Assembly: GCA_947372425.1 (NCBI GenBank)
Contig: CANBTQ010000001.1
Coordinates: 1 to 48,587 of the forward strand
Length of the DNA stretch: 48,587 bases
Direction: 5' to 3'
Source: Comamonadaceae bacterium
Lineage (GTDB): Bacteria; Pseudomonadota; Gammaproteobacteria; Burkholderiales; Burkholderiaceae_C
Shown here one piece after another: positions 6,465-16,270 of the stretch. A program made the position numbers and the translations under genes. The notes beneath the pieces were generated by a model. The model worked only from the letters and a program-made list of their open reading frames with translations, was not told where the DNA came from and did not search any database. Numbering within the stretch: position 1 is the stretch's first letter; every line of letters starts with the position of its first letter.

Positions 6465-7730
6465 TTACACACAGACCGCCTGCGCCCACTGCAGATAGCC
6501 CTGACCGGCCGGCGTGAAGCGCGCATAGCTGCGCAACAGCTTCAGGCCTTGCTGGGCCTGGCTGCGCAGCTCGCCCACGCGCCGCGCCAGCTGGGTGCGC
6601 TGGCTTGTAGGTAGCGCGTCGTCCGCCAGACAACGCGTCAACGCCATGGCGCAGTGCGCGTGCACATAGACGCCTTCGAAGATGCCCACCAGCGGGCGCG
6701 GGTCGCTGCGCCAGCCCACGGCAAAGCGCGCGTCCGACTGGCCGGGCTGCAGCAGCGGCACCGACTCTTCGACATAGCGCAGCTTGACGTGGCTGTGCTC
6801 GTGCACCAGGCTTTCGAGTGCACTCACGGGGTCCGAGGGGTGTATCCAGGCCGCACCCTGCATGGACGAAATGGTGAAGCCGTTCATGCGCCAGCCCGGC
6901 GGCGGCAGGCGCGGCACGGTGACGCGCATCATGCAGCGCCACTCGTCATAGGCGTCGGGCCAGCGCGTAAGCACGGTGTGCGCCGCATCCACAATCGATG
7001 CGCAATCGCAGGCCGGATAGGCACTGGCGCGCAGGTCCACCGCATCGTCCTGCACCGTGCCTTCGCGCTCTGGGGCACGGCTTTCGTCGAGCGTGATGCG
7101 CAGTGCCGGCAAATCGTTGCGCACGGCAATTCCCGATGCGGGCAACATGGCCAGCGGGGGCTGCAGCGGCAGGCTCAGGAACGGCCCGGCGGTGTCGGCC
7201 GGGCACAGCAACACGGTGTCACCCCGGCGCTGGCACAGCCAGCTGCCATCGGCAGAGCCCGGGGGCAGGCGCACGCTGGTGGCGCAGTCCCAGGTTTCAA
7301 TGCAAGCGTGGCGTGCCACCAGAACCACGGCCGGCGCACCGTCCACCAGGCCGGTGACATAGTTGTTGACCGCCGCCAGCAGCGGGGCCACGGCCGGCGC
7401 CGGTGCGCCGGCAATCAGGGCGCGCCCGCTGCTGTGCAGCCAGTGGCGAAACAGGGGCGAGGAGCCGATGTCAAAACGCTCGGCTGCAGTGCGCGCAGCC
7501 AGATCGCGGGCCGCCTGCTGCCAGCGCGCATGGTGCCGCTCCAGCGCGGGGGATGCCAGCACGGCCTGCAACAGGGCTGCAAAATCGTCCAGCCGGTTTT
7601 GCACCGAGGCCTGCACCAGGGCCTCGGTGATGCCCACGTCGGGCATCAGGGCCTGCCGCACAAAGTCGGCGTTTTGCCACTCAGGCAGCAGGGCTGGCGC
7701 TGGCGGCGAACCGGGGGGCAGGGCTGACAT
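6465..7730 (-). CDS. HExxH-motif RiPP tailoring protein (aKG-HExxH peptide beta-hydroxylase family), 421 aa
   Basis: LESLVHEHSHVKL followed by WRSDPRPLVGIFEGVYVH and a C-terminal FTPAG, the signature of rSAM-associated HExxH domains; GAGG RBS before ATG 7730. Confidence 0.85.
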   Translation of the reverse strand: MSALPPGSPPAPALLPEWQNADFVRQALMPDVGITEALVQASVQNRLDDFAALLQAVLASPALERHHARWQQAARDLAARTAAERFDIGSSPLFRHWLHSSGRALIAGAPAPAVAPLLAAVNNYVTGLVDGAPAVVLVARHACIETWDCATSVRLPPGSADGSWLCQRRGDTVLLCPADTAGPFLSLPLQPPLAMLPASGIAVRNDLPALRITLDESRAPEREGTVQDDAVDLRASAYPACDCASIVDAAHTVLTRWPDAYDEWRCMMRVTVPRLPPPGWRMNGFTISSMQGAAWIHPSDPVSALESLVHEHSHVKLRYVEESVPLLQPGQSDARFAVGWRSDPRPLVGIFEGVYVHAHCAMALTRCLADDALPTSQRTQLARRVGELRSQAQQGLKLLRSYARFTPAGQGYLQWAQAVCV

Positions 7731-8877
7731 GAAGACCTCGCTTCTGCAGTGCGGGATGGAGGATGTTGGCCACGGCGTCGAAGAAGTACATCTGGTCGGC
7801 ACAGAGCACGGACTCGCGGTCGGAGATGCCCCGCACAGCGTCGCTGCGCCCGGGCAGAAATCCGCCGCCGCACAGGGCGCGGTGGCGGCACGCGGCGCAG
7901 CGGGCCGGCAGCGCGGCACCCAGGTTCAGCAGCCGGGCAAACAGCGGGTCGTGGCTGAGGCTGTCGAGGCTGGTGTCCTCCAGCGTGTACGGGGTGGCAG
8001 CGGAGCCGTCGGCGGCCACGCGCAGGTAGTCGGGATATTCGTAGCGGCCGTCGGTATTGACCACAAACATGTTGTAGCAGTCGTTGACCAGCACATCGAC
8101 ATGGCCGCTGCCGCCCAGTACCAGGTGCAGCAGGTTGCCAAACAGGCGCACCTGCAGGGTCGGGTCGTCGAGCGCCCACCAGCGACCAAAGAGTTCCGCG
8201 AACCATTGGCCATAGCGCGGCGCAGCCGCATAGCGGCCTTGGCCGCCCAGCGGCCAGGGCGGTTTGCGCCAGTGGTATTCCATGGGCCACAGCACATCGA
8301 TTTTGGTCACGGGCAGGCTGCGCAGCCAGTCCAGAAAAGCCTGCGGCGGCAGGTCCGGATTGGCCACCGCCAGAAAACCGCCAATCAGCGCGCCGTCGCC
8401 GCTGTCCTGCAGACGCCGCACGTTGGCCAGGACACGGTCATAGGTGCCGCGCCCGCGCAGATCCACACGGACTGCGTCGTTCACGGCCTGCGGGCCGTCC
8501 AGGCTGATGCCCAGCACCACCCCGTGCCGGCGCAGCAACTGCTGCAACTCCGGCGCCAGCGGCCGCAGCAGATTGGTCTGCACCGCCACGACCAGATTCC
8601 AGCCGTCGCGCCGACGCTGCGCCACCTGGTCCAGAAAGGCGGACCAGCAGGCCACCGGCCAGAGCAGCGGTTCGCCGCCATGCAGCACGATGGAAAAGGG
8701 CTCGGCGGCACCGCGGGGCTGGTGTTCGCAGATGCGCTCCAGCAGGCGCAGCGCGGTATCCAGGGGCATGCGACGCGGCACCCGCGTGTAGGTGCGGTCC
8801 ACCTGGTTGAACATGTAGCAGTAGGTGCAATCCATGATGCACACTGCCGTCAGTTTGACGATGACCGACTGGAACAT
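7681..8877 (-). CDS. Radical SAM/SPASM peptide maturase, FxsB/XyeB-like (cyclophane-forming) family
   Basis: CIMDCTYC (CxxxCxxC), LHGGEPLL, QTN, GISLDG, YGQWF..LF..WW, VVNTDG.YE..D.LR, C-terminal CAACxxxxxCGGG...SVLC. Confidence 0.88.
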   Translation of the reverse strand: MFQSVIVKLTAVCIMDCTYCYMFNQVDRTYTRVPRRMPLDTALRLLERICEHQPRGAAEPFSIVLHGGEPLLWPVACWSAFLDQVAQRRRDGWNLVVAVQTNLLRPLAPELQQLLRRHGVVLGISLDGPQAVNDAVRVDLRGRGTYDRVLANVRRLQDSGDGALIGGFLAVANPDLPPQAFLDWLRSLPVTKIDVLWPMEYHWRKPPWPLGGQGRYAAAPRYGQWFAELFGRWWALDDPTLQVRLFGNLLHLVLGGSGHVDVLVNDCYNMFVVNTDGRYEYPDYLRVAADGSAATPYTLEDTSLDSLSHDPLFARLLNLGAALPARCAACRHRALCGGGFLPGRSDAVRGISDRESVLCADQMYFFDAVANILHPALQKRGLHVSPAPRFAASASPAA

Positions 8878-8900
8878 GGCAATGCCGACCCACTGCGCAA

Positions 8901-8935
8901 CACGGGGCAGGCCGGCAGCTCCGGCATGCCCCGTG
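8901..8935 (-). other. GC-rich stem-loop between precursor and rSAM genes
   Basis: CACGGGGCA-g-GCCGG / CCGGC-a-TGCCCCGTG inverted repeat with a 5-nt loop and no U-tract. Confidence 0.7.
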
Positions 8936-8950
8936 CTGGCTAGCGGCTGC

Positions 8951-9154
8951 TTACCACTTCAGTCCAAACACCACGCTAATGGCGGCCGGGTTAAAGCCCG
9001 GACGGCCGGCGAGTTGGGAAATGGCGGTCTCCAGAATGCGCCCTTCAACCACCTTCTGGTTGAGCGAATGCACATCGCCCTTGAAGGTCGTGCTGAGGTT
9101 GCGCGCCAGGTTGTTGGCCTCGGACAGGTTGGCTGCTGGGGTGGGTGTCGGCAT
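8951..9154 (-). CDS. Putative RiPP precursor peptide (67 aa)
   Basis: Strong AAGGAGA RBS (9161-9167) before ATG 9154; short ORF directly upstream of the rSAM; aromatic-containing C-terminus FNPAAISVVFGLKW. Confidence 0.8.
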   Translation of the reverse strand: MPTPTPAANLSEANNLARNLSTTFKGDVHSLNQKVVEGRILETAISQLAGRPGFNPAAISVVFGLKW

Positions 9155-9235
9155 TGTTTTTCTCCTTAGGTTGGTGACTTCACTGACGGGCCAGGGCGCG
9201 CACAATAGCCACCGGCGCACCCGCCGCACCGCCAA

Positions 9236-9330
9236 GGAAATGTTAGTTTCGAATTTGTATCTTCACAAGACAAGTATTTTGAAATATTTGCCTGTTTGTT
9301 TGATAAATGACGATTTTTAATTCCGCATTC
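9236..9330. promoter_or_regulatory. AT-rich divergent promoter region (RiPP operon / glutathione peroxidase)
   Basis: Sharp drop in GC between divergent genes; no specific site assigned. Confidence 0.45.
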
Positions 9331-9353
9331 CATGCCACAGACTGGAGCCATTC

Positions 9354-9839
9354 ATGCCAACCGTGTACGACTTTGAAGCCCTGCAGATTGACGGGAAGAA
9401 GGTGGCCCTGAAGCACTTCAAGGGCCAGGTGCTGCTGATTGTGAACACCGCCAGTGCCTGTGGCTTCACGCCGCAGTTTGCCGGCCTGGAGACGCTGCAC
9501 CAGCAATACGGCGGCAAGGGGCTGGCGGTGCTGGGCTTTCCGTGCAACCAGTTCGGCGCGCAGGACAGCGGCAGCAATGCCGAGATTGCCGGCTTTTGCC
9601 AGCTCAACTACGGTGTGACGTTTCCGATGATGGCCAAGATCGAGGTCAACGGCAGCGGCGCCCACCCGCTCTACCAGTGGCTGTGCAAGGAGGCGCCCGG
9701 CCTCTTGGGCAGCAAGGCCATCAAGTGGAACTTCACCAAGTTTCTGGTGGGCAAGGACGGCACCGTGCGCAAGCGCTACGCGCCCACCGACACGCCGCAG
9801 AGCCTGGCCACGGACATAGAAAAGGCCCTGGCCGCGTAA
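9354..9839 (+). CDS. Glutathione peroxidase (Cys-type, cytoplasmic)
   Basis: IVNTASACGFTPQ, LGFPCNQFG, KWNFTKFLV; GGAG RBS. Confidence 0.95.
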   Translation: MPTVYDFEALQIDGKKVALKHFKGQVLLIVNTASACGFTPQFAGLETLHQQYGGKGLAVLGFPCNQFGAQDSGSNAEIAGFCQLNYGVTFPMMAKIEVNGSGAHPLYQWLCKEAPGLLGSKAIKWNFTKFLVGKDGTVRKRYAPTDTPQSLATDIEKALAA

Positions 9840-9936: not shown

Positions 9937-11154
9937 TTACTTCACCAGCTCTTTGATTTCAATCTTCAGGCCCGCAGCACCCACGCTCACCGGCGCCGAC
10001 TGACCCGACAGGTCGCCCGGCTGCGGCATGGCGTTTCCGCTCTTGCTGACACGGGCGCCGACTATCACCTTGCTGGCTGTGGACAGGGCGGTAGCGGGCG
10101 ACATGGCCATGCTGTCGTCCAGCGCAAAGGTCAGCGGCAAGTCTTTGACCTGTTTGCGCAGAATGGCCAGCGGCATGCGCGAGCCTTCGGCGGCGCGGGC
10201 AAACACAAACACGGTGTCATCCGGTTTGGCCTGTTTGGCCAGGGCGGCGGACAGGGTTACCGTGCCGCTGACGCTGGCCTTGCCGGCAGCTGCGGGTTGC
10301 GCAGGCGCATCCAGGGGTTTGGCATCCAGCGGCTTGGCCGCCGGTGGCAGGCCGGCCAGGCTGCGGGCCTCGGCGATGGCGCCGTCCATCTGCTGCACGA
10401 ACACGTTACCGGGAGGGCCGACCTTGGCCAGCTTTTCCCAGAAGGTCAGTGCACTGGTGTAGTCCTTCTTGTTGAAGGCATAGGTGCCGGCCAGGTACAG
10501 CGACTTGAGGTTGTTGGGATCGAGGTGCAGCGCACGGTCGATCAGTTTCATGGGCGCGCCCTCGAGGTTGCTGCCATTGTTGACAGCCATCGAGTCGGCA
10601 TAGTCGGCCAGCAGGGTGGGGTCATCCTTGCGCAGGTTGGAGGCTTTTTCATAGGCCTTGAGGGCCTCGGCGTGCCGCCCCAGCACGCTGTACGAGCGCG
10701 CCAGCATGGACCAGCCTTCCACGTCATCAGGCTTGTCCTTCAGGCGGGCAGCCAGCTTCTCGGTCATGGCCGCAATCTGGTCCGCGCCGGTGGCGTGGGG
10801 TGCGGGTTTGCCGTCGGCCGACAGCATCTGCGGTGCCTCGCCCTCGCCCTGGGCCGGGCCGGGTACGCCCTTCCACAGGTAGCCGGCACCGGCAATGGCA
10901 ATCACGCCCACGGCCAGGCCTGCCATCAGCAGATAGGACGGCTTTGCTGCCGCGGCAGCGGGCACCGCAGCGCTTGCGCCCTGGGCCGGCTGGGTGGCGG
11001 CCGGGGCCGTGCTGCCGGACAGCACCAGATCCAGAATCTGGCGCTCCAGTGCAGTCTTGCCTTCTTCAAATTTTTCGTCGGGCAGCACGCCGCTGGCATG
11101 CAGTTGCTTGAGTTGGGCCAGCTTTTGCTTCAGCGCTTCGATGTTGTTCGTCAT
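9937..11154 (-). CDS. ccmI: Cytochrome c maturation TPR protein CcmI/CycH
   Basis: TM helix, TPR region (DVEGWSMLARSY, YADSMA, ALHLDPNN), C-terminal Ig-like domain (TVFVFARA..RMPLAI, ARVSKSG, QPGDL); last gene of the ccm operon. Confidence 0.88.
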   Translation of the reverse strand: MTNNIEALKQKLAQLKQLHASGVLPDEKFEEGKTALERQILDLVLSGSTAPAATQPAQGASAAVPAAAAAKPSYLLMAGLAVGVIAIAGAGYLWKGVPGPAQGEGEAPQMLSADGKPAPHATGADQIAAMTEKLAARLKDKPDDVEGWSMLARSYSVLGRHAEALKAYEKASNLRKDDPTLLADYADSMAVNNGSNLEGAPMKLIDRALHLDPNNLKSLYLAGTYAFNKKDYTSALTFWEKLAKVGPPGNVFVQQMDGAIAEARSLAGLPPAAKPLDAKPLDAPAQPAAAGKASVSGTVTLSAALAKQAKPDDTVFVFARAAEGSRMPLAILRKQVKDLPLTFALDDSMAMSPATALSTASKVIVGARVSKSGNAMPQPGDLSGQSAPVSVGAAGLKIEIKELVK

Positions 11155-11187
11155 GTTCCGTCTTTTCAATCAATAACAGGCGGGCTC

Positions 11188-11640
11188 TCAGGAGCCCTGG
11201 TTGGCTTCGGGCTCTTCGGCGTCGAAACGGTCTTCGGGCATGCGGCTGCGCCGGCGCAGCACCAGCACCAGGCCTAGCAGGCCGAGTACCAGCAACAGGC
11301 CGGGACCGACCCAGAGCAGGACCGTCATGCGGTTAAAGGGCGGGCGGTACAGCACGAAGTCGCCGTAGCGGGCCGTCATGTACTCGGTGATCTGCTGGTC
11401 GGTCATGCCTTTTTGCAGCATCTCGCGCACCTGCTGGCGCAGGTCTATGGCCAGGTCGGCGTGCGAGTCGGCAATGGTCTGGTTTTGGCACACCAGGCAA
11501 CGCAGCTCGGCGGTGATGGTGAGCATGCGGGCTTCCAGCTCCGGGTCGGCAGCTGCCGGCACGGCCTCATTGGCCGAGGCCAGCGAGACGCACAGAAAAA
11601 GGCACAGAAGGGCGAACCCACGGGCAAAAAACTTAGACAA
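11188..11640 (-). CDS. ccmH: Cytochrome c maturation protein CcmH
   Basis: LRCLVCQNQTIADS, RYGDFVLYRPP. Confidence 0.95.
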   Translation of the reverse strand: MSKFFARGFALLCLFLCVSLASANEAVPAAADPELEARMLTITAELRCLVCQNQTIADSHADLAIDLRQQVREMLQKGMTDQQITEYMTARYGDFVLYRPPFNRMTVLLWVGPGLLLVLGLLGLVLVLRRRSRMPEDRFDAEEPEANQGS

Positions 11641-12178
11641 TTCCCGCCTCCTTTTTCAGCTGTTGCACCAGCGGAATCAGCTTGGTTTCAATGGCTTCGG
11701 GTGTGAAGGGGCCGATCTGCTTGTAGCGAATCACGCCCTGGGCATCGATCAGGAAGGACTCGGGCACACCGTAGACACCGTAGTCAATGCCGACGCGGCC
11801 ATCGTGGTCATAAAGCGAGGCTTCATACGGGTTGCCAAAAGTGGCCAGCCATTTCATGCCGGCGGCGCGCTCATCCTTGTAGTTCAGGCCGTAGATGGGC
11901 AGCAGCTTCTGGCGTGAAAACTCCACCAGCAGCGGATGCTCTTCGCGGCAGGCCACACACCAGGAGGCAAACACATTGAGCAGCCAGACCTTGCCCAGCA
12001 TGTCGTCGCGCTTGAAGCTGGTGTCGGGCTTTTCCAAACCCACCAGTGCAAAGGCCGGCGCCGGCTTGTTGATCAGCGGTGAGGGCACCTCGCGCGGGTC
12101 CAGGCTCAGACCCCGCATCAGAAAGCCCACCAGCACCATAAAGATCGCCAGGGGCAAAAGGAACTTCAGGTATTTCAT
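11633..12178 (-). CDS. ccmG: Thiol:disulfide oxidoreductase CcmG/DsbE
   Basis: ASWCVACREEHP, GVYGVPESF. Confidence 0.95.
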   Translation of the reverse strand: MKYLKFLLPLAIFMVLVGFLMRGLSLDPREVPSPLINKPAPAFALVGLEKPDTSFKRDDMLGKVWLLNVFASWCVACREEHPLLVEFSRQKLLPIYGLNYKDERAAGMKWLATFGNPYEASLYDHDGRVGIDYGVYGVPESFLIDAQGVIRYKQIGPFTPEAIETKLIPLVQQLKKEAGIV

Positions 12179-12192
12179 GATGGCTCTCCGCA

Positions 12193-12260
12193 GGGCCGTC
12201 CCAAGGAGAGCAAAGCCCTCTCGGGGGGCAGTGAGTACACGCAGTGACGAATATGGGGGC
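12193..12260. repeat. Dispersed ~68-bp REP-like element, copy 2
   Basis: GGGCCGTCCCAAGG...CCCTCTCGGGGGGC...ACACGCAGTG...GGGGGC, lying between ccmF and ccmG. Confidence 0.7.
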
Positions 12261-14213
12261 TCATACTGCCACTCCTGTTTTGCGGCGATAACGCCGGTCG
12301 GTCACGGCCATCAAACCACCCAGGGCCATGATCATGCAGCCGCCCCAGATCCAGTCGATAAAGGGCTTCACGTAGACGCGCACGATCCAGGCGCCGCCGT
12401 CCACCTCTTCACCCATGGACACGTACAAATCACCCGTCAGGCCGGGGTGGATGGCCGCCTCCGTCATCGGGTTCTGCTGCACGCGGTAGACGCGTTTTTC
12501 AGGGCTGAGTTCGGTGATTTTGCTGCCGTTGCGGGTGATTTCTATGGTCGCCCGGGTGGCATCGTAATTGGGGCCCTGAATGTCCTTCACACCCTTGAAG
12601 GTGAAAGCGTAGCCGCGTACCGTGGTGCTGTCGCCCACGGCCATCTTGACGTCACTCTCCACCTCGTAGGTCTTGACCATCGTGACGCCAAAACAGAACA
12701 TGGCCACACCAATGTGCGCCACCATCATGCCGGCCAGGGCACGTGGTATCTGCCGGGTCTTGCGGCGGATTTCAGCAAAGCCCTTGCCTTCGGGGCGCAC
12801 ACGCTCCCAGAAGTCGGTAGCCACCGAACTGACAATCCAGTAGGCCATCAGCAGACCCAGGCTGGCCAGCAGGTGAATGGAGCCGGCCAACCAGCCGGTC
12901 AACAGGGCCATGACAACGGTAACGCCGGCTGCCCACTTGAGGCGGCTGGCCAGATCGGGGACCGACGTTTCCTTCCAGCGCGCCATCGGGCCCACGCCCA
13001 TCAGGAAGATGGTGGGCACCATCAGGGGCACGAAGACCGAGTCGAAGTACGGCGGGCCCACCGAAATCTTGCCCATGCCCAAAGCGTCCAGCAGCAGCGG
13101 ATACAGCGTACCCAGCAGCACCACGCCGGCCGCCACCATGAACAACACGTTATTGGCCAGCAGTGTGGTTTCCTTGGAGAACAGGGCAAAGCGGGCGCCC
13201 AAGCCCACGGTGGGCGCGCGCCAGGCAAACAGCGCGAACGAGGAGCCGATCACGATCGTCAGGAAAGCCAGGATGAACAGGCCGCGGCGCGGGTCGGTGG
13301 CAAAGGCATGCACCGAGGACAGCACGCCCGAGCGAACCAGGAAGGTACCCAGCAGCGAGAACGAGAAGGCCAGAATCGCCAGCATCACGGTCCAGTTTTT
13401 GAAACTGCTGCGTTTTTCGGTGACCGCCAGCGAGTGGATCAGTGCCGTACCCAGCAACCAGGGCATGAGGGAGGCGTTTTCCACCGGATCCCAGAACCAC
13501 CAGCCACCCCAGCCCAGTTCGTAATAAGCCCAGGAACTGCCCATGGAGATACCCACGGTCAGGAACATCCAGGCCACGGTGGTCCAGGGGCGCGTCCAGC
13601 GCGCCCAGGTGGCATCCAGATTGCCACCAATCAGCGCCGCAATGGCAAAGGCAAAGGCCACGCAAAAGCCCACATAGCCCATGTATAGCGTGGGCGGGTG
13701 GAACACCATGCCCGGGTCCTGCAGCAAGGGGTTCAAGTCGCGGCCGTCGGCCGGCACCGGGAACAGGCGGTCAAACGGGTTGGAGGTGAGCAGCATGAAC
13801 AGCAGAAAGCCCACGCTGACCAGGCCCATGACGGCCAGAATGCGCGCCAGCACCTCGCGCGGCAGGTGACGGCTGAACAGGGCGACAGCCACCATCCAGA
13901 TCACCAGCATCTGCACCCACAGCAGCAGCGAGCCTTCATGGCCGCCCCAGAAACCCGCGATTTGGTATTGCAGCGGCAAATGGGTATTGGAGTTGGATGC
14001 CACATAGAGCACCGAGAAGTCGCTCTTGATAAAGGAAATCATCAGGCAGGCCGAAGCCAGTGACACCAAGACAAACAGCAGGTAGGTTGCTGGACGCGCG
14101 ATGACCATCCAGTCGGCGCGACCGCGTGCCGCGCCGGCCATCGGAACCACGCCGATGACCAGTGCCACGCCCATGGCGAGCCAGAGTAAAAAGTGACCAA
14201 TTTCAGGAATCAT
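12261..14213 (-). CDS. ccmF: Heme lyase CcmF
   Basis: WGGHEGSLLLW, LNPLLQDPGM.FHPP, WGGWWFWDPVEN, SVHAFA. Confidence 0.97.
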   Translation of the reverse strand: MIPEIGHFLLWLAMGVALVIGVVPMAGAARGRADWMVIARPATYLLFVLVSLASACLMISFIKSDFSVLYVASNSNTHLPLQYQIAGFWGGHEGSLLLWVQMLVIWMVAVALFSRHLPREVLARILAVMGLVSVGFLLFMLLTSNPFDRLFPVPADGRDLNPLLQDPGMVFHPPTLYMGYVGFCVAFAFAIAALIGGNLDATWARWTRPWTTVAWMFLTVGISMGSSWAYYELGWGGWWFWDPVENASLMPWLLGTALIHSLAVTEKRSSFKNWTVMLAILAFSFSLLGTFLVRSGVLSSVHAFATDPRRGLFILAFLTIVIGSSFALFAWRAPTVGLGARFALFSKETTLLANNVLFMVAAGVVLLGTLYPLLLDALGMGKISVGPPYFDSVFVPLMVPTIFLMGVGPMARWKETSVPDLASRLKWAAGVTVVMALLTGWLAGSIHLLASLGLLMAYWIVSSVATDFWERVRPEGKGFAEIRRKTRQIPRALAGMMVAHIGVAMFCFGVTMVKTYEVESDVKMAVGDSTTVRGYAFTFKGVKDIQGPNYDATRATIEITRNGSKITELSPEKRVYRVQQNPMTEAAIHPGLTGDLYVSMGEEVDGGAWIVRVYVKPFIDWIWGGCMIMALGGLMAVTDRRYRRKTGVAV

Positions 14214-14215
14214 GT

Positions 14216-14671
14216 TTATTTGCTCGTAACAAGGGATGCAGCGGTCTTTTGATTGCTCTTGGCCGCGTTTTTCAGAGCTTCTGCCGCTTCGGGCGGCATG
14301 TAGTTTTCGTCGTGTTTGGCCAGCACTTCCTTGGCCACAAAGACACCGTCCTGCAGCTTGCCCTGTGCGACCACCCCTTTGCCTTCCTTGAACAGGTCGG
14401 GCAGGATGCCTTCAAAGTGCACCGGCACGCTCTTGGCCGTGTCGGTCACCATGAAGTCCACCGCCACGCCGCTGCGCTTGACGCTGCCGGCCACCACCAG
14501 GCCGCCCAGGCGGAAGGTGCGGTTCACCGGCGCCTCTTTGGACTCAATCTGTGTGGGCGAGAAGAAAAACACCAGATTGCTCTGGAAGGCATTCAGGATG
14601 AGCGCAGCAGCTGCCGCAATCACCAAGACCACACCGCCGGCAATGGCCAGCCGTTTATGACGCGTTTTCAT
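14216..14671 (-). CDS. ccmE: Heme chaperone CcmE
   Basis: [22 protein letters not shown] (heme-binding His/Tyr). Confidence 0.96.
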
Positions 14672-14677
14672 GTTTGT

Positions 14678-14848
14678 TTAACCTTGTTCATCTTCCAGAT
14701 CACCAATCGCGCGCAAGGCGGCACGGTGCCGGCGCGCTGCCAGCACCGGCTCCAGCAGCATCCAGGCTGCCGTCACCCCGTACGAACCCCACACATACAA
14801 GCCATAGCCACCCATGGCAAAAAAATCACTCGCACTGTTCCAGACCAT
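14678..14848 (-). CDS. ccmD: Heme exporter protein CcmD
   Basis: MVWNSASDFFAMGGYGLYVWGSYG; 56 aa between ccmC and ccmE; GGAG RBS. Confidence 0.92.
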   Translation of the reverse strand: MVWNSASDFFAMGGYGLYVWGSYGVTAAWMLLEPVLAARRHRAALRAIGDLEDEQG

Positions 14849-14858
14849 GTCGCTCCCC

Positions 14859-15602
14859 TTACTTCTTGTGCGCCAGGGCTTGCACCCAGTCGGCACTGCT
14901 CTCGCGCTCCAGCACCACCGCGCGCGCGCGCATGAACACTACCGCAAAGGCGTAGGCCCAGAAGGCCACCGTCATCAATAACATGGACAGCAGCATGGTG
15001 TGGGCCATCTTGGGTGCCGCCGTCATGCTGATGCTCGAACCCTGGTGCAAGGTGTTCCACCAGCGCACCGAGAAGTAAATGATGGGCACGTTGACCGCGC
15101 CCACAATGGCCAGCAAGGCACCGGCGTGGTCGGCCCGGCGCACATCGTCAATCGCCTCCACCAGCGCCATAAAGCCCAGGTACAAAAACAGCAGGATCAG
15201 CTCGGAGGTCAGGCGCGCATCCCAGACCCACCAGGCGCCCCAGGTCGGCTTGCCCCAGAAGGCGCCGGTCCACAACGCCAGAAAGGTAAAGGCCGCGCCG
15301 GTGGGCGCAATGGCACGCGCCATCATCGAGGCCAGACGGGCGTTGGCAGCCCAGCCAAAGGCGGCCCAGCCGGCCATGGCCATGTACAAGACCATGGACA
15401 TCCAGGCGGCGGGCACGTGGATAAAGATGATGCGGTAGGAGTCGCCCTGGGTGGCGTCGGTGGGCGCCACGAAGAAGCCCACATACAAACCCCACACAGC
15501 AAACGCGGCGGCAATGGCATACAGCCAGGGCACGCTGATGCTGGCCAGACGGTAAAACGTCTTGGGCGCGGCAAAGGTAAAAAGTCTTGGCAGTTTTTTC
15601 AT
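14859..15602 (-). CDS. ccmC: Heme exporter protein CcmC
   Basis: IFIHVPAAW, WGKPTWGAWWVWDARLT (WWD domain), WWNTLHQG; ATG 15602 overlaps the ccmB stop. Confidence 0.96.
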   Translation of the reverse strand: MKKLPRLFTFAAPKTFYRLASISVPWLYAIAAAFAVWGLYVGFFVAPTDATQGDSYRIIFIHVPAAWMSMVLYMAMAGWAAFGWAANARLASMMARAIAPTGAAFTFLALWTGAFWGKPTWGAWWVWDARLTSELILLFLYLGFMALVEAIDDVRRADHAGALLAIVGAVNVPIIYFSVRWWNTLHQGSSISMTAAPKMAHTMLLSMLLMTVAFWAYAFAVVFMRARAVVLERESSADWVQALAHKK

Positions 15603-16270
15603 ACGGAGATTCGCAAGGCAGCGGCCGTGGCCACCGGGGCTCCCAGGGCAGAGAGCAGAAACATGGCACCCAGCAGGTAGAAGTGGCCGTCGGGTGACAG
15701 ACCGGACTCCGCGGCTGTGACGGCACCGGCGCCGAAGATCAGCACCGGAATGCACAGCGGCAGCACGATCAACAGAATCAGCACGGCCGAATTGCGCAGG
15801 CCCAGCGTGAGTGCGGCACCCATGCCGCCCATCAGGCTCAGGATGGGCGTGCCCAGCAGCAGGCCGAAGGCCATCAGCCCGATCGACTCCCAGCCCAGGC
15901 CGAACAACAGGCCCAGCAGCGGCGACACCAGCAGCAGCGGCACGCCCGTCATCAGCCAGTGGGCAATGCATTTGGCCGCAGCCAGCTCGACACCGGAGAG
16001 CTGCGAGATCAGCATCTGCTCCAGCGAGCCGTCGGCATAGTCGCTGCCGTACATGGAGTTGAGCGACAGCATGGAAGACAGCAGTGCGCAGACCCAGACA
16101 ATGCCGGGCGCGATCTGCTTGAGCGTGGCGGCCTCGGGCCCCACACCCAGCGGAAACAGACTGGCCGCCACGACGAAAAACACCACCGGCAGCAGCGCCT
16201 CGGCCGGGCGCCGGCTGGCCAGGCGCAGATCGCGCGCCAGGATGGCCATCATCGGGCTCATGGCGCTCAT
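15599..16270 (-). CDS. ccmB: Heme exporter permease CcmB
   Basis: DYADGSLEQ, PLCIPVLIFG; six TM helices. Confidence 0.95.
   Translation of the reverse strand: MSAMSPMMAILARDLRLASRRPAEALLPVVFFVVAASLFPLGVGPEAATLKQIAPGIVWVCALLSSMLSLNSMYGSDYADGSLEQMLISQLSGVELAAAKCIAHWLMTGVPLLLVSPLLGLLFGLGWESIGLMAFGLLLGTPILSLMGGMGAALTLGLRNSAVLILLIVLPLCIPVLIFGAGAVTAAESGLSPDGHFYLLGAMFLLSALGAPVATAAALRISV

Follow-up and report, generated by a model that had tools for sequence, protein, structure and literature searches.

What product is made by a compact gene cluster in which a small open reading frame (ORF) is followed by a radical S-adenosylmethionine (rSAM) enzyme and a protein with an HExxH motif? The question is raised by positions 6465–9154, minus strand, of a 48,587-nucleotide stretch of DNA from a Comamonadaceae bacterium (assembly GCA_947372425.1, contig CANBTQ010000001.1; this whole stretch is hereafter the window, and all positions refer to it). 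An initial annotation, made from the sequence alone, had proposed that the cluster encodes a peptide made by the ribosome and then modified post-translationally (a RiPP), of a new precursor class. As described below, the precursor and its maturase belong to a widespread bacterial family that is matched by no curated model scanned. By analogy with characterised enzymes, the rSAM enzyme would join Phe63 to Leu65 of the precursor (−2 Da) and the HExxH enzyme would hydroxylate its G53–P56 segment (+16 Da), a reading to which we assign a probability of roughly 0.55.

A widespread family of precursors

The precursor (P0001, 67 aa, 8951–9154, minus strand) matches no RiPP family in NCBIfam or Pfam, in line with the earlier view that it lies outside the described families, and nothing was found for it in the ESM Atlas. 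Likewise, none of 50 family precursors scanned matches a RiPP precursor model. A direct search with the precursor returned 15 relatives, 14 of which share the C-terminal stretch up to FGLK. Since these relatives give no means of ranking the candidate motifs, 159 loci that encode relatives of the rSAM enzyme were fetched (the best 80 of 138 and the best 80 of 106; loci are cited by L numbers). An iterated profile detects a precursor relative beside the rSAM gene in 98 of the 159, across several phyla. Of the 61 loci without a profile match, 44 encode an rSAM enzyme of below 33% identity and 5 are cut off by the start of the contig, and six of ten profile-negative loci viewed by eye hold a clear precursor relative. 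Named hosts include Polaromonas, Nitrosomonas, Vibrio, Pseudoalteromonas, Tenacibaculum, Streptomyces, Mycolicibacillus, Acidobacteria, Chloroflexia and Opitutaceae. A search of the full library gave 103 representatives of 50%-identity clusters, two of which are unrelated long proteins. A search of 60 host relatives, including 36 from the same genus, did not turn up the rSAM enzyme, and its distribution is therefore patchy.

The proposal of a new precursor class thus holds in that these peptides are covered by no curated model and are kept beside homologous rSAM genes, but the precursor is not an orphan. The family is unreported in the open-access literature searched and in the supplements of PMC11499958, PMC10288494 and PMC9062424, although triceptide surveys may list it; literature searches for the core motif gave isolated single occurrences, which were judged to be due to chance.

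The leader follows the family consensus E-x-x-K-S-R-I-L-x-A-A-x-x-x-L. From this conservation we infer that residues E37–L48 (9011–9046) form the helix recognised by the rSAM enzyme. In L040 and L140 (2688–2867) the precursor lies downstream, not upstream, of the rSAM gene, and the precursors at L020 (5773–5931) and L042 (2990–3136) as well as P0019 are apparently frameshifted relative to close relatives, by sequencing error or decay.

The F-x-L motif of the core

Motif counts were made on 64 non-redundant precursors drawn from 103 precursors, with the apparently frameshifted L020 and L042 left out. F-x-L/M is present in 64 of 64 (shuffle mean 21.5), and in the library as a whole 101 of 103 matches have Fx[LM] and 78 the tandem form. 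When 49 precursors are aligned without an anchor, only the F63 column is invariant, and L65 shows conservation of at least 90%. Units of (F/W)-x-(L/M) recur with a four-residue period, one in 19 precursors, two in 38 and three in 7; the tandem [FW]x[LM]xFx[LM] occurs in 45 of the 64, whereas 500 shuffles give 0.12 on average and never more than 2. In the window's precursor the first unit is lost (I59-S60-V61) and F63-G64-L65 (8960–8968) is retained; as the only family-wide unit remaining, the latter is the best crosslink candidate. Among the candidates listed in the initial annotation (FNP, FGL and a terminal LKW), only FGL is thereby retained: the LKW ending is variable, with W at the last position in 26 of the 64, and FNP is confined to a subgroup associated with one HExxH clade. 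FNP and LKW are ruled out as the family crosslink motif, since neither is conserved family-wide.

On aromatic-X-X motifs, triceptide synthases join an aromatic ring to a C-β, and where the native motif has Phe the result is a paracyclophane (PMC11499958; PMC11002830). As in triceptide systems, the locus combines a related maturase with an aromatic-X-X motif in the adjacent precursor, and a crosslink is predicted on this basis.

The radical SAM enzyme

The rSAM enzyme (P0002, 398 aa, 7681–8877, minus strand) is of an unassigned clade related to the cyclophane synthases YhhB, FxsB and ChlB. Its CxxxCxxC motif (C13/C17/C20) and CxxCx5C...C tail (C327/C330/C336/C359) are present as first described, and 88 or more of 91 family rows have these cysteines. 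The assignment to the cyclophane type is borne out by the best NCBIfam matches, all of which lie below their cut-offs: YhhB (NF041707; 226 of 445 bits), FxsB (TIGR04269; 214 of 370) and XyeB (112 of 450). The closest solved structure is ChlB (E 9.5e-35). Neither of the two nearest families accommodates the precursor. FxsB-system precursors have an FxSxx C-terminus, whereas the precursor here ends in FGLKW; YhhB motifs are Tyr/His-x-Arg, and the core here has neither Tyr nor His. Public annotation of the related enzymes reads merely 'radical SAM protein'. In a tree of 71 rows, from which 23 near-duplicate loci were left out by name and in which the outgroup is not monophyletic, the enzyme belongs to a 63-row clade supported at 100; L045, L144 and L148 have F-x-L precursors, yet their rSAM enzymes lie outside this clade. 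Nearly clade-wide, the Leu of the FLLP motif gives way to a Trp (W197).

In HtkB, third-residue preference is set by Asp214, which by the codon count in the published supplement is the residue after FLLP, and its equivalent here is Met199. This position is I, M or L in 58 of 59 family rows.

Co-folding of the rSAM enzyme with precursor residues 22–67 gave a score of 0.57 against 0.00 for the best control and returned no contacts (contact agreement at least 44%, partner pLDDT, the predicted local distance difference test, at least 46). The mark is reached by 116 of 157 solved pairs and 2 of 215 mismatched pairs; at or below 0.60 there are only 18 solved pairs and both mismatches, so that a pass at this level is wrong more often than right unless the interaction is likely beforehand, and a ChlB-like complex may have been memorised. 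The result weakly supports binding of the precursor by the enzyme.

More distant rSAM enzymes, at about 30% identity, adjoin other repeat precursors: AFRRG repeats (L046, 5554–5913, and other Bradyrhizobium loci), HTDG repeats (L143, L156 and L159) and a FFGQNF-type core (L149). They represent separate cyclophane-type systems, and all those scanned score below curated cut-offs.

The HExxH protein and the GFNP segment

The stand-alone HExxH protein (P0003, 421 aa, 6465–7730, minus strand) passes the model TIGR04267 for α-ketoglutarate (aKG)-dependent HExxH proteins with 94 bits against a cut-off of 40, as expected for the partner first proposed. It carries H310-E311-x-x-H314 and W340-R-S-D-P-R-P346, and H310, E311 and H314 are unchanged in 12 of 12 aligned proteins. 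Its predicted structure (pLDDT 90) is matched by Foldseek to SjiH (E 1.3e-12, template modelling score 0.66) and to ChlH, with no further significant match in the structure search.

Its presence was compared with the precursor in 97 precursor loci (L042 left out), of which 30 are too short downstream and 67 are scorable. Of the 25 loci with this HExxH clade, 24 have GF[ND][PE], which in the window is G53-F54-N55-P56 (8987–8998), as against 0 of 42 scorable loci that lack the clade; 37 of the latter have neither motif nor any HExxH gene found, and five have a second HExxH clade. The HExxH gene is thus an accessory in the family. Because GF[N/D]P co-occurs with this clade, the segment is the likely hydroxylation site, and Asn/Asp is the only candidate residue in all 25 loci if the AND stretch of L026 is counted. 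HExxH enzymes are known to act on His, Asp, Phe, Gln and Pro, and Pro hydroxylation by PesO was correctly predicted from the same logic of enzyme-motif co-occurrence (PMC13060819).

The second HExxH clade (HEAIH; 40–46 bits with TIGR04267) directly follows the rSAM gene in L018 (7164–8171), L021, L022, L023 and L035. Precursors at these loci are longer, with a core F-D/E-L-x-F-D/H-L-x-C and then an acidic, Pro-rich tail, and the Cys of this core may be the target of the second clade. L030 and L130 have the core Cys, and no HExxH gene was found there.

Proposed maturation and alternatives

By inference from the characterised relatives, maturation would begin with binding of the conserved leader by the rSAM enzyme, which would take a hydrogen from Leu65 and couple this residue to the ring of Phe63, probably C4 to C-β. 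Afterwards or independently, the HExxH enzyme would add a hydroxyl group within G53-F54-N55-P56, with Asn55 as the first choice, followed by Phe54 and Pro56. Where a relative has two or three (F/W)-x-L units, two or three rings would form at four-residue spacing, in most cases without an HExxH gene. The leader would be cut off by a host protease encoded outside the cluster, and the product would be a rigid, amphipathic, β-strand-like peptide.

Several observations weigh against this scheme. None of 24 related rSAM enzymes reaches a curated cut-off (best five families for each), and because the enzyme here passes none either, its chemistry is extrapolated from 25–35% identity. The third residues of characterised enzymes, in the literature consulted, are Asn, Asp, Ser, Arg, Lys and Ala, and Leu is not among them. 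Conservation of F-x-L is partly circular, since the precursors were gathered by a profile that rewards it, and a hydrophobic residue at position −2, followed by F, makes the reverse pair as conserved as F-x-L. Met199 was dropped as a specificity argument, because 9 of the 18 rows that do not belong to the precursor set likewise have a hydrophobic residue at this position, which makes it consistent but not diagnostic. As for the hydroxylation, the GF[ND][PE] pattern was defined after the data had been seen, and L026 has an enzyme of this clade without the motif. Both traits change five times on the tree, and because only two independent pairs lie on well-supported branches, the phylogenetically corrected test of motif and HExxH clade is not significant (median p 0.5). 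Finally, ChlH requires a cyclophane already installed (PMC12636437), which would favour a ring at FNP.

This last point leads to a scheme in which the GFNP subgroup acquires two rings, F54-N55-P56 (Phe to Pro) and F63–L65, with Asn55 hydroxylated inside the first ring in the manner of ChlH. The subgroup has mostly lost the upstream F-x-L unit, with I/L-S-V/I in its place, while F54 is kept. However, F-x-P occurs in only 13 of the 64 non-redundant precursors and L115 has FNE in place of FNP; furthermore, several members, such as L124 and P0157, carry GFNP together with two F-x-L units, and therefore the former does not simply replace the latter. A second ring of this kind is unlikely. The alternating core might also be linked in another way, from C-γ or C-δ of Leu to Phe, or in reverse as V61–F63 or L65–W67. 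Of the 64 precursors, 98% have a hydrophobic residue at position −2 and 53% an aromatic one at position +4, and the C-γ hydrogen of Leu is tertiary. There is precedent in WprB, which uses C-γ of Arg (PMC11851443), and in the plant peptide arabipeptin A, which contains a link from Leu C-β to Tyr (PMC12186524). Set against this, Ile, Cys or Leu often stands at position +4, and the characterised enzymes of the group, in the literature consulted, use aromatic-first motifs linked to C-β, so that a different regiochemistry is as unlikely as the two-ring scheme.

The HExxH enzyme could instead free the core by oxidative or hydrolytic cleavage of the backbone at or after GFNP, for example at the Ala that follows, and so replace a protease. 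PflC and PosC cut the backbone at an Ala within a conserved motif (PMC12636437), A57 does not vary in 16 close precursors, and no conserved protease was found near the family clusters. Nevertheless, the 37 scorable loci without an HExxH gene would have the same need for processing, and hydroxylation is the commoner reported activity (PMC13060819), which makes cleavage quite improbable. It is very improbable that the rSAM enzyme performs no cyclophane chemistry on this peptide and instead epimerises the alternating hydrophobic residues or carries out some other radical reaction on them, or that the small protein is not its substrate: the sub-cut-off scores and the W197 replacement would allow for this, but precursor and rSAM gene lie side by side in several phyla, and every one of the nearest characterised enzymes is a cyclophane synthase. 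The Phe63–Leu65 crosslink with hydroxylation in G53–P56 is therefore preferred.

Relation to known systems

Both enzyme types and their pairing are already known. ChlBH, SjiBH and MscBH (PDB 9GM3, 8S5F and 22OB) combine an FxsB- or YhhB-related rSAM with an aKG-HExxH enzyme, and they include the best solved relatives of the rSAM (ChlB) and of the HExxH protein (SjiH and ChlH). In the cluster described here, however, the genes are separate rather than fused, the scores lie below curated cut-offs, the HExxH protein is only 12–16% identical to SjiH and ChlH, and the core is F-x-L rather than Tyr/His-x-Arg/Asp or Phe-x-Ser. Xenorceptides (XyeAB-CDE), darobactin and dynobactin share serial three-residue aromatic motifs, a β-strand-like core and a C-terminal hydrophobic-x-aromatic dyad, but in contrast to the Xye systems the XyeB score is low, the leader does not end in Gly-Gly, and there are no conserved protease or transporter genes of the XyeCDE type. 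HaaB and ScaB (His-x-Ala) accept an unactivated aliphatic third residue; they and HtkB (His-x-Lys) nonetheless act on His-first motifs, and the residue after Pro that sets third-residue preference is Asp214 or His204 in this group and Met199 here. PesO and PflC/PosC are encoded by stand-alone HExxH genes, as here, and the presence of PesO tracks a Pro motif of the precursor; their partners, however, are multinuclear non-haem iron oxidative enzymes and not cyclophane-type rSAM enzymes. For a Phe–Leu pairing, or for Leu as the third residue of a cyclophane-forming rSAM, no report was found in the open-access literature searched, and triceptide surveys may list the family.

Processing, export and possible target

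No conserved protease or transporter was found among the gene clusters common to distant loci by crude ORF calling; isolated protease-like neighbours are ClpP-like at L088 and trypsin-like at L038. The downstream gene P0004 (5775–6434, minus strand, 219 aa), which begins 31 nucleotides after the HExxH stop codon with a signal-peptide-like start and has Cys/His motifs by eye, was considered as the pathway protease and rejected, since it has no tblastn match in any of the 159 related loci. It belongs to no Pfam or NCBIfam family and was not found in 60 host relatives; the nearest named Atlas cluster is the Tae4 amidase (0.88), a weak match and a lead only. The precursor at L144 (2747–3115) has a twin-arginine translocation (TAT) signal above cut-off (TIGR01409), and TAT- or Sec-like N-termini are seen by eye at L026 (5549–5923), L028 (5606–5923), L101 (387–773) and L148 (5601–5903); some members may therefore be exported whole.

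The core alternates hydrophobic with small or polar residues, and its C-terminus resembles the β-signal of outer-membrane proteins, polar-x-G-x-x-hydrophobic-x-hydrophobic/aromatic (10.64898/2026.09.25.754295). Three of the four specified positions fit (S60, L65 and W67), with V62 at the Gly position. An alternating C-terminal pattern, defined post hoc, ends 22 of 64 precursors and 14 of 3810 long six-frame host ORFs; BamA is among the latter and has Gly at −4. Darobactin and xenorceptide act as extra β-strands on BamA. Targeting of BamA by the C-terminus is suggested by this resemblance as a lead only, and it is opposed by the restriction of the pattern to 22 of 64 precursors, the many C-terminal tails and the lack of export genes. 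It is distinctly unlikely that the whole family, spread across phyla in about 100 clusters at 50% identity, comprises all-hydrophobic, Phe/Trp-x-Leu stapled β-signal mimics that act as BamA-binding antibiotics, with a new crosslink (possibly at Leu C-γ, giving a quaternary carbon) and two independently recruited HExxH clades.

The locus and its surroundings

The cluster is genuine, and all features originally described are confirmed. The precursor ATG is preceded at 7 nucleotides by the strong ribosome-binding site AAGGAG (9162–9167, minus strand), and the HExxH gene overlaps the rSAM gene by 50 nucleotides. The 73-nucleotide spacer between precursor and rSAM gene (8878–8950) forms a long hairpin (z = −5.25, a stability that none of 200 shuffles attains; for the spacer sequence alone, z = −3.4), and the spacers of related loci have z < −2 in 23 of 47. 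This stem-loop likely stabilises or attenuates the transcript, by which more precursor than enzyme would be made. Third-codon-position GC content is 0.76–0.84 in the cluster and thus close to the 0.84–0.88 of neighbouring genes. Near-identical DNA is present in contigs of three DNA runs from three studies, each covering 29–30 of 30 bins (the best holder may be the source sample), and the stretch is therefore no assembly artefact. It has no plasmid match at E 1e-60. RNA data gave a single 198-nucleotide contig in one run, counted as no evidence of expression.

An AT-rich stretch (9240–9335) between the precursor and a divergent glutathione peroxidase gene (9354–9839) is the likely promoter region; no match to the σ70 consensus was found, and terminators are not in excess. 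The flanks contain a phytochelatin-synthase-family gene (PF05023; 1575–2390, plus strand) and, by ORF inspection, a cytochrome c maturation operon (9937–16270, minus strand), with no link to the cluster seen.

Implications

The family is broader than was first noted and comes with a sharp prediction, the link between Phe63 and Leu65. Since natural members carry one, two or three motifs, with or without the HExxH enzyme, the targets of the two enzymes are separable. If the Phe–Leu staple is true, it would extend cyclophane synthases to a bulky, branched aliphatic partner, and the cluster would offer a minimal two-gene tool for rigid, hydrophobic β-strand peptides. Because the C-terminus is β-signal-like, the products may be worth screening against BamA, a validated target for antibiotics against Gram-negative bacteria.

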